A stretch of DNA of 64,000 nt from a virus (lineage: Duplodnaviria; Caudoviricetes), in the IMG/VR virus record IMGVR_UViG_3300023178_000006; one strand, 5' to 3'. A program made the translations under genes and the position numbers. This document shows positions 56,663-63,424 of this stretch, in pieces (position 1 is the first letter of the stretch; every line of letters starts with the position of its first letter). A model generated the notes under the pieces. That model was not told where the DNA came from. It ran no database searches and saw only the letters and a program-made list of their open reading frames with translations.

Positions 56663-57178
56663 ATGAGTTTATTATCAGTTTATAGAAAGAACTCTCAAAT
56701 CGATATCCCTACCCTCGCTACTGAAGGGTCAGCATGTTTTGACATTAAATCTTATTTTAAATCAGGACAAAAGATTCGTTGCTTCAATCCAGTCAATAAA
56801 GAGGTTGAAGTATTAACAAAAGAAATTCAACAAGAAGTATCATTCCTTCTTCATCCAGCTCATAGAGCATTTATACCAACAGGTTTAATATTCGACATTC
56901 CCGAAAATCACGTATTGAAAATGTATATTCGTAGTAGTGTGGCAGCTAAAAAGGGATTAGCATTAACAAATGGTGTTGGTATTATTGATAGTGATTACGT
57001 AGACGAAACACATATTTTAGTGACTAATATTTCAGATGCTATTGTACGTATTAATAGTGGTGAAAGGTTAGCGCAGTGTAAGTTGGAAAGAAATTTAGAA
57101 ACAGAAATATGGGAGACCGATAAACCACCTTCTCAGAAAACTGATAGAGAAGGTGGGATAGGAAGTACTGGAGATTAA
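56663..57178 (+). CDS. dut: Trimeric dUTPase
   Basis: ACFD, RSS...KKG, GIIDSDY, GERLAQ, REGGIGSTG. Confidence 0.92.
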   Translation: MSLLSVYRKNSQIDIPTLATEGSACFDIKSYFKSGQKIRCFNPVNKEVEVLTKEIQQEVSFLLHPAHRAFIPTGLIFDIPENHVLKMYIRSSVAAKKGLALTNGVGIIDSDYVDETHILVTNISDAIVRINSGERLAQCKLERNLETEIWETDKPPSQKTDREGGIGSTGD

Positions 57179-57258
57179 GCCAAGAACTTTTCAGAGACTG
57201 TTAATAAATCGCCAGACTTCATTAATTCGTCGAATTTTTTAAATAAATCGTATAGCAT
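57175..57258 (-). CDS. Putative 27-aa late peptide
   Basis: MLYDLFKKFDELMKSGDLLTVSEKFLA; AGGAG RBS; own TATAAATA at 57292-57299. Confidence 0.45.
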   Translation of the reverse strand: MLYDLFKKFDELMKSGDLLTVSEKFLA

Positions 57259-57269
57259 TGTATTTCTCC

Positions 57270-57299
57270 TATAAATATTTTGTATATACTTTATTTATA
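57270..57299. promoter_or_regulatory. Face-to-face late promoters (TATAAATA + at 57270-77, - at 57292-99)
   Basis: Two exact late boxes on opposite strands. Confidence 0.6.
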
Positions 57300-57336
57300 T
57301 CAAATGTTACATGTGTGTGACAAAAAGGTGACAAAA

Positions 57337-57486
57337 ATGAAAAAAGATGACACGTTAATCATTAAGATTAACAAAGAACAAAAGAAAGAATTCATACAGA
57401 TATGCAAAGATGATGACACATCTGCATCGCGTGAAGTACGTAATTTTATTAAAAACTTTATTAAAACACACGCAGAAGCTGTATAA
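57337..57486 (+). CDS. Ribbon-helix-helix DNA-binding protein (CopG/Arc-like)
   Basis: TLIIKI strand, then NKEQKKEFIQIC and SASREVRNFIKNFI helices; 49 aa. Confidence 0.7.
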   Translation: MKKDDTLIIKINKEQKKEFIQICKDDDTSASREVRNFIKNFIKTHAEAV

Positions 57487-57489
57487 ATA
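57482..57489 (+). promoter_or_regulatory. Late promoter for hsp20
   Basis: Exact TATAAATA. Confidence 0.65.
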
Positions 57490-57491
57490 AG

Positions 57492-57580
57492 TTTTGTATA
57501 CGCCGAGAGGGTATACGAAAATGGTGGCGCGCTAACTAGCGGCCGAATAATAATATCTAGCTTAATAGGAGATAAAAATG
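57492..57580 (+). promoter_or_regulatory. Structured hsp20 leader, ROSE-like thermometer candidate
   Basis: GAGA-capped 5' hairpin; SD AGGAG sequestered in UAUCUAGCU-UAAU-AGGAGAUA with a bulged G. Confidence 0.45.
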
Positions 57581-58024
57581 ACTGGATTAAATATAAACCA
57601 CTTAACCCCTTTTGCTGTCGGATTCGATAGAGTGTTTGACAGATTAGTTGAATTCCCACAAACTCACGCAGCAACAGGATTCCCACCTTATAATATCAGA
57701 AGAAATAAAGACGGTGATAAGTTCTCTATTGAACTTGCATTGGCTGGTCTCGATATTAATGATGTGGATATTGAAGTTAAAGAAGATGTACTTACAGTAA
57801 AATCTACTTGGGACGAAAAACCAGAAGATAATACTTTAGTAATACACAAAGGAATTTCTCAAAAGAAATTTACTCGTAGCTTTACATTAGCTGACGACTT
57901 AAAAGTAGTTGGTGCTAACTTCAAAAATGGTTTGTTGGTCATTGGACTCGAAAGGATTATTCCTGAAGATAAAAGACCACAAAAAATCAAAATTGACAAC
58001 AAGAAAGAATTCTTGGTAGGTTAA
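57578..58024 (+). CDS. hsp20: Small heat shock protein
   Basis: VGFDR.F, FPPYNI, IELALAG, HKGIS...F.RSFTL, A.FKNGLL.I.L. Confidence 0.95.
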   Translation: MTGLNINHLTPFAVGFDRVFDRLVEFPQTHAATGFPPYNIRRNKDGDKFSIELALAGLDINDVDIEVKEDVLTVKSTWDEKPEDNTLVIHKGISQKKFTRSFTLADDLKVVGANFKNGLLVIGLERIIPEDKRPQKIKIDNKKEFLVG

Positions 58025-58029
58025 TTTTT

Positions 58030-58061
58030 AATCCGGGAGGGCGCAATGCTCTCCCGATTTT
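58030..58061 (+). terminator. Intrinsic terminator after hsp20
   Basis: GGGAGGGC-GCAAT-GCTCTCCC then TTTT. Confidence 0.7.
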
Positions 58062-58091
58062 ATAACATGTTATTGAAAGGAAATTTAAATT

Positions 58092-58625
58092 ATGACTATT
58101 GAAGGAAATAAGGTACCTAACGTTACCTTTAAAGTTAGGGAACTCAATAAGGAAACTGCAGAATACGAATGGACTCACCCAAATACCGATTGGTACTTTG
58201 CTGGTAAGCGAGTAATTGTATTCTCACTACCTGGTGCATTCACACCAACTTGCTCAACTTTCCAAGTGCCTGGATTTGAAGCTCGTTATGATGATTTCGT
58301 AAAAGAAGGAATTGATGATATATATTGTATGTCTTGTAATGATTCTTTTGTTATGAATGCTTGGGCAAAAGACCAAGGAGTGAAAAAAGTAAAATTCATT
58401 CCAGATGGTTCATGTGAATTTACCGCAGGTATGGATATGTTAGTTGCGAAAGACAATGTAGGATTCGGTAAAAGGTCTTGGAGATATGCTATGATTGTAA
58501 ATGATGGTGTAGTTGAAAAGGTTTTTGAAGAGCCTGGCAAATCTGATGATTGTGCAGATGACCCTTATGGAGAAACTTCGCCTGGAAATATTCTTGCATT
58601 TTTACAAGGTACTCTAGAAAATTAA
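58092..58625 (+). CDS. Peroxiredoxin (Prx5-like)
   Basis: FSLPGAFTPTCS, ND.FVM.AW, PDG..EF, RSWRYAM. Confidence 0.93.
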   Translation: MTIEGNKVPNVTFKVRELNKETAEYEWTHPNTDWYFAGKRVIVFSLPGAFTPTCSTFQVPGFEARYDDFVKEGIDDIYCMSCNDSFVMNAWAKDQGVKKVKFIPDGSCEFTAGMDMLVAKDNVGFGKRSWRYAMIVNDGVVEKVFEEPGKSDDCADDPYGETSPGNILAFLQGTLEN

Positions 58626-58650: not shown

Positions 58651-58676
58651 AGGGGACAAGGACGTCCCCTTTTTTT
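58651..58676 (+). terminator. Intrinsic terminator
   Basis: AGGGGAC/GTCCCCT then T-run, between convergent genes. Confidence 0.75.
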
Positions 58677-60522
58677 ATCCTACTAAACCAGGGATTGCTA
58701 TGCCGAATCCTGACTTATCACCACTACCATAACCAACTGCATAAGAAGTTACAGATGACATGTTCTGAGCACTTGATGACGCGATATTATAAACAATAGG
58801 TGCACCAGAATTATTTACATACGAGAATCCATTATTACCACCACTCATACCAAACATATTAGACAGGTCTATCATTTCAGGAGTCATTGTATCTTGGTAT
58901 TGTTTATCAATTAATTCTTGTTGTCTTTGTGCTTCTGCTACTCTCTTATTATAATCTTCTAATGATTCATTACGTCTCTGTAATATATTTGAAGATGTAT
59001 CAACTTGGCGTTGAAGAAGGTCTCTATCTTCTTCGGCTTCTGCAATCATTCTTTCTAAACGTCTCTTAGTAACTGACCTACCATTTACTGTATAAGTTCC
59101 AGTAGCATTAGGTTCTGCGTCTAGAATTGCTTGTAAACTATTGACTTCTTCTATAGAAGTGTTAAGTGCTTCTGTGTTATCATCGACGAATTTTTTCGCT
59201 GCATCTCTAACGGCGGTTAGTGCAGCAAGTTGTTCTTCAACACTTCCACCTATAGCATCTTGTTCTGCTCTTAGTGCATCTTCAACTGAGTTAGGTAATT
59301 CGTCAATACCTTCACCAGAATCTTCGAACCATCTCTTAACTCCTAATAACGCTGAAGTACCAAATCCCCATGCAGCACCTGATATAGCACCTGCTAATGC
59401 GCCGGGTCCAGCACCAACTCCCATTCCCAATGCACCGACTGCGGCACCTGTACCAGCACCAACTCCAGCACTAATTACTGTATCAGTTACTAAATCACTA
59501 ATACCCGTATCACGTGCTTCAATTGCTGCTAATAAATCTGCTTCTGCGGTATTTGCTGCCTCTAACTCTTGTTCATCTATTAAACCAATCACAGTTGCTG
59601 CAGTTATCCCCGCACCTACCATTCCTGGCTTTTTACTTCTTAATAAGGAGTTTTTAGTTCTATTCCACCAAGAATTTGCAGCTCTGTCACCGGCAGCTGT
59701 TCTTAGTGCAGTTTCTCTAGCACCACCTGTTAATAATTGTCCTGTTCTATTACTTCTTGGATTACCGTCATCATCTATTGTAAAGTTTCTTGGAGGAGTT
59801 CTAGGAGGTGGTTGATTTCTACCTCCGCCTGCACCTGCAGTTCCTGGATTAACTACGGGTGGAGTTCCACCTCGTCCAAGTAGACTTTTAAGTCCTAATA
59901 TACCTAAAGCTGCTGAACCTACCCCAGCGAGAATTTTTCCTAAAACTACAAGTGATGCTATTGTTGCGAATCCTGCAGCAACTTTATCCCATTCAACTTT
60001 TCCTAAGAAATCTACGAGTTTTCGAAAGCCATCTGCTATTGTTGGTATCTCTACACCAAACTGTTCTTCAATCATACCAGCGATGAATTCATAAGCGAAT
60101 GCACCACCAACTAATAAATTACCCCACCTTTTGAAGAAACCAGCGATACCACCAAAAATGCTTTTCATCGATTTAATTAAGGAGTTATTATTTCTGTCTG
60201 CTTTCTTTTGTGCTTTTAAATCAGCAATAGATTTACGCTTCGCAGTCTCTTGGTCTCTCTTAGCGTTTTCAGCTTCAACTTCATAATACTTCTGACGTTC
60301 TTCATCAGACAATGCTCGAAGTTTTGCTTCTTGTTCAGCTAGTGAAGCGGCCGCCGCAGACGATTGACTAATTCCCTTAAATGCCTGAGACATCTCATTG
60401 AATACGCCATTAAATTTCGCAAGTTCAACCTTGACTTCTTTAATAGAGTCAGGTCCTTTGGAGCGAAGTGCTTCACCCTCTTCTTTTAACTGATTGACAA
60501 TAGCTTCTGTTTCTGGTGACAT
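58675..60522 (-). CDS. Tape-measure-like / baseplate hub protein (gp29 position)
   Basis: Coiled coils, hydrophobic Gly-zipper stretches, located directly after gp26/gp51. Confidence 0.55.
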   Translation of the reverse strand: MSPETEAIVNQLKEEGEALRSKGPDSIKEVKVELAKFNGVFNEMSQAFKGISQSSAAAASLAEQEAKLRALSDEERQKYYEVEAENAKRDQETAKRKSIADLKAQKKADRNNNSLIKSMKSIFGGIAGFFKRWGNLLVGGAFAYEFIAGMIEEQFGVEIPTIADGFRKLVDFLGKVEWDKVAAGFATIASLVVLGKILAGVGSAALGILGLKSLLGRGGTPPVVNPGTAGAGGGRNQPPPRTPPRNFTIDDDGNPRSNRTGQLLTGGARETALRTAAGDRAANSWWNRTKNSLLRSKKPGMVGAGITAATVIGLIDEQELEAANTAEADLLAAIEARDTGISDLVTDTVISAGVGAGTGAAVGALGMGVGAGPGALAGAISGAAWGFGTSALLGVKRWFEDSGEGIDELPNSVEDALRAEQDAIGGSVEEQLAALTAVRDAAKKFVDDNTEALNTSIEEVNSLQAILDAEPNATGTYTVNGRSVTKRRLERMIAEAEEDRDLLQRQVDTSSNILQRRNESLEDYNKRVAEAQRQQELIDKQYQDTMTPEMIDLSNMFGMSGGNNGFSYVNNSGAPIVYNIASSSAQNMSSVTSYAVGYGSGDKSGFGIAIPGLVG

Positions 60523-60702
60523 TTATCGTGCCTTTGCTTTCTCGTTTTCTTGTTCTATCCAATTAATTAACATTTGGAAATATAAATCCCTTTCATAAGG
60601 AATCAATCTTTCTATTTCATCTATACTGTATTTATGGTGCTGGGCCAAACTGAAGACAATTTGATAATAGTCTTCAAGCCTCAAATGGACCAGCGCTAGG
60701 TA
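60523..60702 (-). CDS. gp51: gp51-like C-terminal segment, no ATG; probably reached by -1 frameshift from gp26
   Basis: YLALVHLRLEDYYQIVFSLAQHHKYSIDEIERLIPYERDLYFQMLINWIEQ...; begins at the T TTT TTT heptamer. Confidence 0.75.
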   Translation of the reverse strand, partial: YLALVHLRLEDYYQIVFSLAQHHKYSIDEIERLIPYERDLYFQMLINWIEQENEKAKAR

Positions 60703-61397
60703 AAAAAAGCGCGCATCCCCTCAATTACAAATGTTTTTTCGTCTCCGTTCTTATTTGTATAAGGTAATTCGTGCCTCAATTTTGGAGAAGTCTCAAAGAA
60801 TTTTTGTATGTCTTTAACTACTTCACCACTCAAATCGTCCATAAATGCGTCAATTTGTTCTTGGTCGTACTCTTTAAAATAATGTACTTCATCTTCTGAA
60901 GCTACAAAATCTAAACATGTACATAATGATAAGTAATCCGTTAACGGGTCATCTTCTTCAATAGTAGAAATCTTAATGAATTCGTCTATTGTTGGATACT
61001 TTAAGAAGAGTGTATACTCGTCATTAATTTTAATTTCTTTACTATGCTCTTCGTTTTTCGTTATCGATACATTGTCAATATCAAGCGTCAATGTAATTTG
61101 TTCTTCAGTATCTGAATCTTTAATATTAAACTCAACAATATTGTTTACAGACCTTGCACGTAATACTAATAGAACGTACTCAAGGTCAAATACTGCAAGT
61201 TCAGATACATCAACATCAATTAAACAATTATTAATAACTTGTTTTGCCGCGAGCATTTCTTGCATTGGGTCTTCTGAAGCTTGACCAATCAAAAGAATTT
61301 TTTCTTCTTTTACAGTGAAAGGTCGGTACTTCACTTTTTCACCTGATGAAGGAAGCGTAAGCTCCAAAATCGGCAAATCAATTTTTGGCAGTGCCAT
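60696..61397 (-). CDS. gp26: Baseplate hub assembly protein (T4 gp26)
   Basis: MALPKI..P..EL.LPS.G.KVKYRPFTVKEEKILL, FDLEY..L.LRARSV, LKYP, IEGMRAFF. Confidence 0.9.
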   Translation of the reverse strand: MALPKIDLPILELTLPSSGEKVKYRPFTVKEEKILLIGQASEDPMQEMLAAKQVINNCLIDVDVSELAVFDLEYVLLVLRARSVNNIVEFNIKDSDTEEQITLTLDIDNVSITKNEEHSKEIKINDEYTLFLKYPTIDEFIKISTIEEDDPLTDYLSLCTCLDFVASEDEVHYFKEYDQEQIDAFMDDLSGEVVKDIQKFFETSPKLRHELPYTNKNGDEKTFVIEGMRAFFT

Positions 61398-62909: not shown

Positions 62910-63368
62910 TTATCTGACTCCTAATTCTTTTTCGGTCATGATTACAAATTCCCACCCTCGGTCAGCACAATATTGTCTTGCTGCTTTCCATTTAGCACTA
63001 TTGATACCATAATTCTTAACTTCATTAAGATATCTTCTCGATACTCTTCCAGATGGTGTGTTATTTTTCTTAGAAGGGTCTGGAGGTAACGTTTGCTTAT
63101 ATGGTTTAATTTCTATCATAATAGTCTGTATTTTACCTTCTGGACTCTTCTTATGCACTATTACATCAGGAAAGTATCTGTGTACTCTACTATCTATAGG
63201 ACTCCTATAAGGAACTATCACTTCTTCGCTTTGCCACCATATAACATCAGGATGTTCATCAACAAATCTGAAGAATTTAAATTCCCAAAGTGACCTATAA
63301 ATTATCTTCGTCGGGTCTCCTTTGTATTTAGCTGGATTCTTTGGACGAAAACGACCCTTGTATGCCAT
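62910..63368 (-). CDS. gp4: Head completion nuclease (T4 gp4)
   Basis: MAYKGRFRPKNP.KYKGD...IIYRSLWE, W.SEE..VPY, RYFPD, EIKP, N..KW.AA. Confidence 0.93.
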   Translation of the reverse strand: MAYKGRFRPKNPAKYKGDPTKIIYRSLWEFKFFRFVDEHPDVIWWQSEEVIVPYRSPIDSRVHRYFPDVIVHKKSPEGKIQTIMIEIKPYKQTLPPDPSKKNNTPSGRVSRRYLNEVKNYGINSAKWKAARQYCADRGWEFVIMTEKELGVR

Positions 63369-63389
63369 AATATTCTCTTCACTACTCCA

Positions 63390-63424
63390 TATAAATAATT
63401 GAAAGATATCCACAGTTATTTATT
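63390..63424. promoter_or_regulatory. Face-to-face late promoters for gp48 (+, 63390-97) and gp4 (-, 63417-24)
   Basis: TATAAATA and AATAAATA. Confidence 0.65.

Follow-up and report, generated by a model that had tools for sequence, protein, structure and literature searches.

The question raised by this locus is how a phage uses a gene that ends in a run of T's together with a second reading frame that opens at that run and has no ATG at its head. The locus lies on the minus strand of the window (the whole stretch of viral DNA that was analysed, 64,000 nt in length), and its anatomy is read directly from the letters. A gp26-like ORF of 233 aa (60696..61397) ends with the codons GCT TTT TTT ACC TAG, in which the slippery heptamer T_TTT_TTT (60702..60708) stands in the X_XXY_YYZ register of the gp26 frame and the 0-frame stop TAG (60696..60698) lies one codon past the heptamer. 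The -1 frame is then open for 59 codons (60526..60702) and closes at a TAA (60523..60525), giving the order of elements seen in loci of the G/GT type, a slippery site followed by an open -1 frame. (The slippery site of lambda is G_GGA_AAG, which differs from T_TTT_TTT.) Upstream, the -1 frame is limited by a TGA five codons 5' of the T-run; because of this TGA on one side and the 0-frame stop on the other, the stretch in which the two frames could be joined is only about 7 codons long, and the heptamer is the sole slippery motif within it. The trans-frame product predicted from a slip at this site has 232 + 59 = 291 aa.

The first-pass annotation had suggested such a slip, and direct reading confirms the in-register heptamer that it placed at the 3' end of gp26 as well as the 59 open codons; its product lengths of 233 aa and about 290 aa agree with the computed 233 aa and the predicted 291 aa. 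In two details it is corrected. The stop of the extension had been placed 1 nt before the next ATG, but the gap is 0 nt, since the TAA abuts that ATG (60520-60522). The extension had also been described as having no ATG start, which is true of its head but not of its whole length, because an ATG stands at codon 44, as well as a start-like TTG at codon 7.

The protein families of the two parts are well defined. The gp26-like ORF matches the Pfam family PF12322 (T4_baseplate) over residues 11-232, with 168.6 bits against a cut-off of 24.5 (2.2e-49), and the baseplate hub family phrog_150 with 2.1e-57; T4 gp26 and T4 gp51 both match the same Pfam model, placing the ORF in the gp26/gp51 family. 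According to papers that cite Vladimirov, Gautam & Davidson (Virology 2022), that work names gp26 and gp51 as the tail assembly chaperones of T4-like phages (TAC-N and TAC-NC), and the ORF corresponds to TAC-N, the short form. (Leiman et al. 2010 describe gp26 and gp51 as hub assembly chaperones and gp51 as absent from the particle.) The extension, for which no Pfam family was found, matches phrog_634, the baseplate hub assembly catalyst family that is gp51, over profile positions 58-114 (3.3e-22), and it has 492 database relatives at E<=1e-3.

The layout of the T4 proteins indicates how the two parts belong together. T4 gp26 (208 aa) is covered by PF12322 over its whole length, whereas T4 gp51 (249 aa) has PF12322 at residues 1-201 and then a phrog_634-type tail, its residues 147-246 matching profile positions 2-103. 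The C-terminal ~48 residues of gp51 are homologous to the extension in the window; by BLASTP, residues 12-45 of the extension align with gp51 212-244 (E 2e-5). The PF12322 match ends at residue 232 of the window protein and at residue 201 of T4 gp51, and the alignment of the extension extrapolates back to this same point. Because the join is collinear, the predicted long product has the architecture of T4 gp51, and a collinear phrog_634 tail after the PF12322 domain is obtained only when both frames are joined. The first-pass annotation had named a gp26-like N-terminus (KPFTV) and an extension-like C-terminus in T4 gp51, and had equated the longer product with full-length gp51. KPFTV is indeed present, the C-terminal motif is one letter off, and the fusion, as a predicted product, is collinear with T4 gp51 in the alignment.

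Some database proteins already hold both parts in a single frame. P0064 (294 aa, 67% identical) switches from one to the other exactly at Phe-Phe, and P0138 and P0144 likewise have the gp26 C-terminal part and the gp51-like extension in one frame; all three could be either homopolymer assembly errors or real fused variants. The family may extend further still. T4 gp26 has a weak match (E 9e-4) to phrog_1140, the 'baseplate hub distal subunit' family of gp28, and in the GenBank entry for Acinetobacter phage Octan all three of gp26, gp51, and gp28 are called 'tape measure protein assembly chaperone'. Perhaps gp28 is the third paralogue, a more remote one, beside gp26 and gp51.

Whether the T-run is more than a pair of Phe codons can be judged from related loci. 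The set comprises 83 such loci: 80 from a scan of viral contigs (60-76% protein identity) and three from the isolates P-SSM4, S-H68, and Methylophilales phage Melnitz. T_TTT_TTY is present in the same register in 80 of the 83, and the remaining 3 have G_TTT_TTT. The 0-frame stop lies one codon past the heptamer in 79 of the 80 heptamer loci; in Melnitz it follows the heptamer directly. (The three exceptions, L036, L040, and L042, with the junction near 2190, read ACG TTT TTT in place of NNT TTT TTT and keep the stop spacing; at least L036 also retains an intact -1 extension. G_TTT_TTT is a natural variant in which P-site re-pairing is weakened.) The Phe-Phe residues are conserved at the protein level, in T4 gp26 as well, so that part of the T-run reflects a constraint on the protein. 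The synonymous positions within it are nevertheless fixed beyond what the protein needs. The first Phe codon is TTT in 68/68 distinct genes, against a background of 78% TTT and 22% TTC among Phe codons elsewhere in these genes, and in 67/68 the preceding codon has T as its last letter, against 38% of Ser/Thr/Ala codons, counts that take no account of shared ancestry; given a protein identity of 60-76%, though, good mixing of synonymous sites is to be expected. The second Phe codon, at which the heptamer rule permits both forms, is TTT in 57 of these genes and TTC in 11.

The shifted frame is conserved along with the site. In the related loci, conservation of the -1 frame peptide begins immediately after the slip, at its first residue, and the extension is open and conserved as a protein in every complete relative examined. 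The combination of heptamer, stop spacing, and homologous extension is also found in four of five distant phages, namely Vibrio nt-1, Aeromonas 65.2, Delftia PhiW-14, and Desulfovibrio 7757. The fifth, Vibrio phage K444, lacks a canonical heptamer; an ATG overlaps the stop there. (Its junction reads CTT TTT GCG TAA TG ATG and its gp51-like small ORF, L089 3190-3410, is kept; coupling or reinitiation in place of frameshifting is possible in this phage.) The first-pass annotation had proposed heptamer conservation across gp26 3' ends as a check, and had held that the lack of a conserved slippery site in relatives would count against a frameshift; no such lack is seen. As judged from these comparisons, the pattern at the slip site is more than chance.

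These same observations bear on the idea that the extension is a dead, decaying piece of an old gp51 gene and that the T-run is nothing but a Phe-Phe codon pair. The low AlphaFold2 confidence of the extension (see below) agrees with such decay, and nothing further does. A remnant would not be expected to stay open and protein-conserved in every complete relative, or to have relatives in the hundreds in the database, and we regard this explanation as extremely improbable.

A different alternative is that two separate proteins are made and no fusion, the small gp51-like ORF being translated alone, either from the TTG at codon 7 or by termination-reinitiation. GenBank annotation is on the side of this view. 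The extension appears as a separate small 'gp51' or hypothetical ORF in P-SSM4, S-H68, nt-1, PhiW-14, and K444, and as a truncated ORF that begins 19 codons into the conserved part in Melnitz (L003 3694-3893), so that 6 of the 7 annotated single-gene records inspected list a separate small ORF; in the seventh, that of Aeromonas phage 65.2, the gp51-like extension (L086 3209-3390) is wholly unannotated, and a joined CDS is given in none of the seven. In addition, an ATG or GTG overlaps the gp26 stop (as TAATG, TGATG, or TAGTG) in 37 of 61 distinct relatives, and because of this overlap the small ORF could come from termination-reinitiation there.

The distribution of starts across the family argues against separate translation, however. 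The overlapping start is absent in the other 24 of the 61 relatives, where the first start falls at codon index 1 to 19; in 12 of these 24 it falls at index 14-19, inside the conserved part. Residues ahead of any start are conserved. In the window there is no start codon in the extension before the TTG at codon 7 and no Shine-Dalgarno sequence ahead of that TTG, and in Melnitz and 65.2 the conserved head of the extension has no usable start codon. Gene callers place the start of the small ORF at many different points: among the best 150 of the 492 relatives of the extension, 67 starts lie at residues 1-4, 13 at 5-9, 13 at 10-15, and 30 at 16-22, and 27 lie upstream, where the -1 frame is poorly conserved. 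Conservation of a protein whose start is not itself conserved is the pattern that a frameshift extension gives. Separate translation also leaves unexplained the fixed TTT and the fixed T that precedes it, the existence of T4 gp51 as a covalent fusion of both parts, and the loss of the heptamer exactly where a full-length gp51 gene exists (see below). We consider it quite unlikely that the small ORF is translated on its own in place of a fusion.

A subgroup of relatives (P0146, P0152, P0154, P0162, and similar ones) has an ATG 13-15 codons upstream in the -1 frame, giving predicted proteins of 78-83 aa that begin MW... and continue with a poorly conserved basic stretch ahead of Phe-Phe. This upstream N-terminus seems to arise from the overlapping frame as an artefact and not to be genuine.

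The loss of the heptamer follows the number of genes. None of the five gp26 genes from phages with a separate full-length gp51 (T4, Octan, KFS-EC, 44RR, and RB16) has an in-register heptamer with an extension, and the -1 frames at these five gp26 ends close at once. In T4 itself, unlike in the window, gp26 ends GAG TTC TTT GAG TTA CTA TAA, with neither a slippery site nor a -1 extension, and genes 26 and 51 are two divergently transcribed genes. When PF12322 copies are counted per whole record, 5/5 heptamer phages have one and 4/4 T4-type phages have two; the 64-kb window itself contains a single copy, and a 12-kb fragment, the nearest record searched, has no match. In an unrooted maximum-likelihood tree of PF12322 domains, all 13 single-gene rows fall on one side of a branch with support 92/97, and the gp51 N-domains form one clade with support 100/99. 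The tree agrees with a duplication having occurred in the T4-type lineage and the frameshift being the older arrangement, an order that it does not prove.

Sequences around the heptamer contain candidate stimulators of a slip. In E. coli dnaX, the heptamer is accompanied by an upstream Shine-Dalgarno-like element and a downstream stem, and the window has a candidate for each. In dnaX, however, the gene is unrelated, the shifted frame stops almost at once, and the stimulators are proven, while here they are inferred. The upstream candidate is a GAGGGG (60717..60722) located 8 nt 5' of the heptamer; GARGG, 8-9 nt before the heptamer, is invariant in all rows of alignment A1. The same letters also encode a conserved Glu-Gly, and a role of GAGGGG in the RNA as a stimulator, in addition to its role as codons, is conjectural.

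The downstream candidate is a stem whose 5' arm (60686..60695) begins 6-7 nt past the heptamer and whose 3' arm lies at 60638..60647, the arms GCUG...CAGC being about 40 nt apart. The 90 nt after the heptamer in the window fold into a structure starting 7 nt downstream (MFE -21.4 kcal/mol, z -2.2, with 8/200 shuffles as good). The stem was derived from the consensus and then tested as a named structure; as such, its 9 bp (A1 columns 38-46 with 87-95) are paired in 87% of cells over 54 aligned junctions. A single pair of the stem, 43-90, covaries (UA 19, AU 13, UG 9, GC 3, unpaired 10). Codon use within the arms is also skewed. A Leu codon in the 5' arm is CTG in 60/64 distinct sequences, compared with 4.4% of Leu codons elsewhere, and a Gln codon in the 3' arm is CAG in 61/64, compared with a background of 22.8%. 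RNAalifold predicted no consensus structure for the 54 aligned junctions, and folds of distant relatives share no structure, the stem being absent there. (An inner hairpin of the window, A1 58-63 with 76-81, was dropped with only 59% of cells paired.)

The same 291-aa protein could be reached without any slip by the ribosome if RNA polymerase added an extra U on the T-run in some transcripts, which would then be translated normally. The run is a homopolymer of 7 T's in the window and of 6 to 8 in relatives, and the title of Vladimirov et al. 2022 refers to some mechanism that is not translational frameshifting. An inserted U would give a product identical to that of a -1 ribosomal slip, so that the two are distinguished by features of the site. 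Only six T's are present in 12 of 62 distinct junctions (10 with T6 then C, 2 with G then T6), and six is short for efficient polymerase slippage. A conserved stem at the canonical spacing of 6-7 nt and a stop one codon on are features of ribosomal sites, and it is because of the downstream structure at this spacing that a ribosomal slip is favored. Contigs of two seawater metatranscriptome libraries show T7 without indels; these contigs are short and blind to minority variants, and can neither reveal rare slippage products nor prove transcription. Taking the evidence on both sides, we think polymerase slippage unlikely.

A possible further reading has two parts: in this uncultured marine clade, a clade-specific, long-range RNA stem, kept by rare codons (CTG, CAG) in spite of the AT bias of the genome, would tune the slip, and the single-gene frameshift would be the ancestral route to both chaperone forms in T4-like phages, T4 genes 26 and 51 being a later duplication that froze both forms. 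We put this forward tentatively, as an idea that has a real chance of being right but may well fail in one of its parts. To our knowledge, neither the tuning by the stem nor the ancestral frameshift has been documented so far.

A model of the gp26 domain brings in the tail assembly chaperones of other phages. An AlphaFold model was made for P0064, the relative of the window protein with 67% identity, using a 60-row alignment. Its mean pLDDT is 72.8; the gp26 domain is moderately confident and the extension is poor, with values below 50 over residues 229-278. A structural search against representative chains ranked three of them highest, each matching within residues 1-93 of the model: 3fgx (Z 8.5 over 84 aligned residues), the HK97 tail assembly chaperone 2ob9 (Z 7.1 over 83), and YqbN 3klu (Z 6.0 over 82), Z values in a range that unrelated models often reach. 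A Foldseek search of the model against the PDB gave nothing at E<=0.001, and PDB sequence searches with the window gp26 and T4 gp51 gave nothing at E<=1. The three top matches do agree on one small domain, an agreement that is suggestive, without being proof, of a tail-assembly-chaperone-like fold in the N-terminal ~90 residues. Unlike the classical chaperones, the gp26 domain is about twice their size, and only its first ~90 residues match them.

The genes on either side place the locus in a tail module. Directly downstream is an ORF of 615 aa (58675..60522, minus strand) that is tape-measure-like in its position, size, and composition. It has no significant match to a Pfam or PHROG family; BLASTP against T4 gp29 gives E 0.064, there is also a weak match to nt-1 ORF206, and an Atlas lead points to the PF25671 T4_Tape_measure cluster (score 0.91, rank 16). 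The stop of the extension abuts the ATG of this ORF, and the position of the extension would be of the G/GT type if the ORF is a tape measure gene, as its size, its position, and the weak Atlas lead suggest. In T4, by contrast, genes 27 and 28 sit between gene 51 and the tape measure gene 29. Upstream of the gp26-like ORF, Pfam and PHROG identify a tail tube-like protein, gp2, and gp4. The last of these, a head completion homologue (62910-63413, minus strand), matches phrog_218 at 1.7e-56 and, in addition, a Pfam TnsA-like endonuclease N-terminal domain at 3.6e-21. On the opposite strand beside the tail module (56663-58625, plus strand), Pfam identifies a dUTPase/dCTP-deaminase-like protein, an Hsp20 small heat-shock protein, and a Redoxin/AhpC-type peroxiredoxin, three host-like genes that are typical auxiliary genes of marine T4-like phages.

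Compared with lambda G/GT and P2 E/E+E', the locus has in common two products (predicted here) with a shared N-domain and an extension that ends at the tape measure gene (here a tape-measure-like one), but there is no detectable sequence similarity to either system. Compared with the T4-like chaperones attributed to Vladimirov et al. 2022, it has in common the PF12322 family, short and long forms, and a poly-T slippery site at the end of the TAC-N gene. It differs from them in its source, a salt-marsh or marine lineage, uncultured, whose identity to isolates is 40% at most (the locus is found in several public salt-marsh DNA runs, which may be where it comes from).

Taken together, these comparisons argue that a ribosomal -1 frameshift, with expression like that of lambda G/GT, probably operates at this tail assembly chaperone locus of a T4-like phage. 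The reading first proposed for the locus is in this respect borne out, as far as sequences can do so, by the heptamer, the conservation of the -1 frame, the homology to gp51, and the co-variation with gene number. The mechanism that we infer, from the occurrence and efficiency of the slip to the production of the long form and its binding partners, would run as follows. Most ribosomes would stop at the gp26-like TAG and release the 233-aa short form (TAC-N). A minority would slip back by one base as two Phe-tRNAs re-pair on T_TTT_TTT, and these would read 59 further codons in the -1 frame to yield the long form (TAC-NC) of 291 aa, its domains arranged as in T4 gp51. The slip would likely be aided by the stop one codon downstream and by the conserved RNA stem 6-7 nt past the heptamer, and perhaps also by the GAGGGG located 8 nt upstream, which resembles a Shine-Dalgarno sequence. 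If lambda and T4 are a guide, the common N-domain would coat the tape measure protein encoded next, the extension would bring in a further component of the tail or hub, and the finished virion would contain neither form.

The principle of such a frameshift in T4-like phages is not new. Searches of the literature for gp26/gp51 together with frameshift, slippery-site, or baseplate-hub terms brought up nothing on this locus, and the prior art came to light via a reference in the PRFect paper. Vladimirov et al. 2022 is cited by two papers; poly-T slippery sequences that end TAC-N genes are credited to it, and the PRFect paper cites it for some T4-like phages that have, in place of a frameshift, one short gene and one long fusion gene. 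Atkins et al. 2016 describe G-T frameshifting as conserved in long-tailed phages 'except T4'. With the principle in print since 2022, going by the papers that cite that report, the locus in the window is a clear new example and not a discovery, and its biology is no surprise. Three points may go beyond the literature: the evidence at the codon level, the clade-specific stem downstream, and the co-variation of heptamer and gene number.

The frameshift also accounts for an old oddity. Sullivan et al. 2010 give the gp51 of cyanophages and of marine vibriophages as ~20% of the T4 length, without the first ~200 residues, and in the passages concerned do not explain this by a frameshift. The same paper describes gp51 as 'missing only in Aeh1', and this absence may have the same cause as the unannotated extension in 65.2 and the late-start ORF in Melnitz. 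Public annotation thus lags behind, and in T4-like marine phages one gene with ribosomal slippage should be called. The locus also provides a natural series for studying how the ratio of short to long chaperone is set, some phages using a frameshift for this and others a pair of genes.
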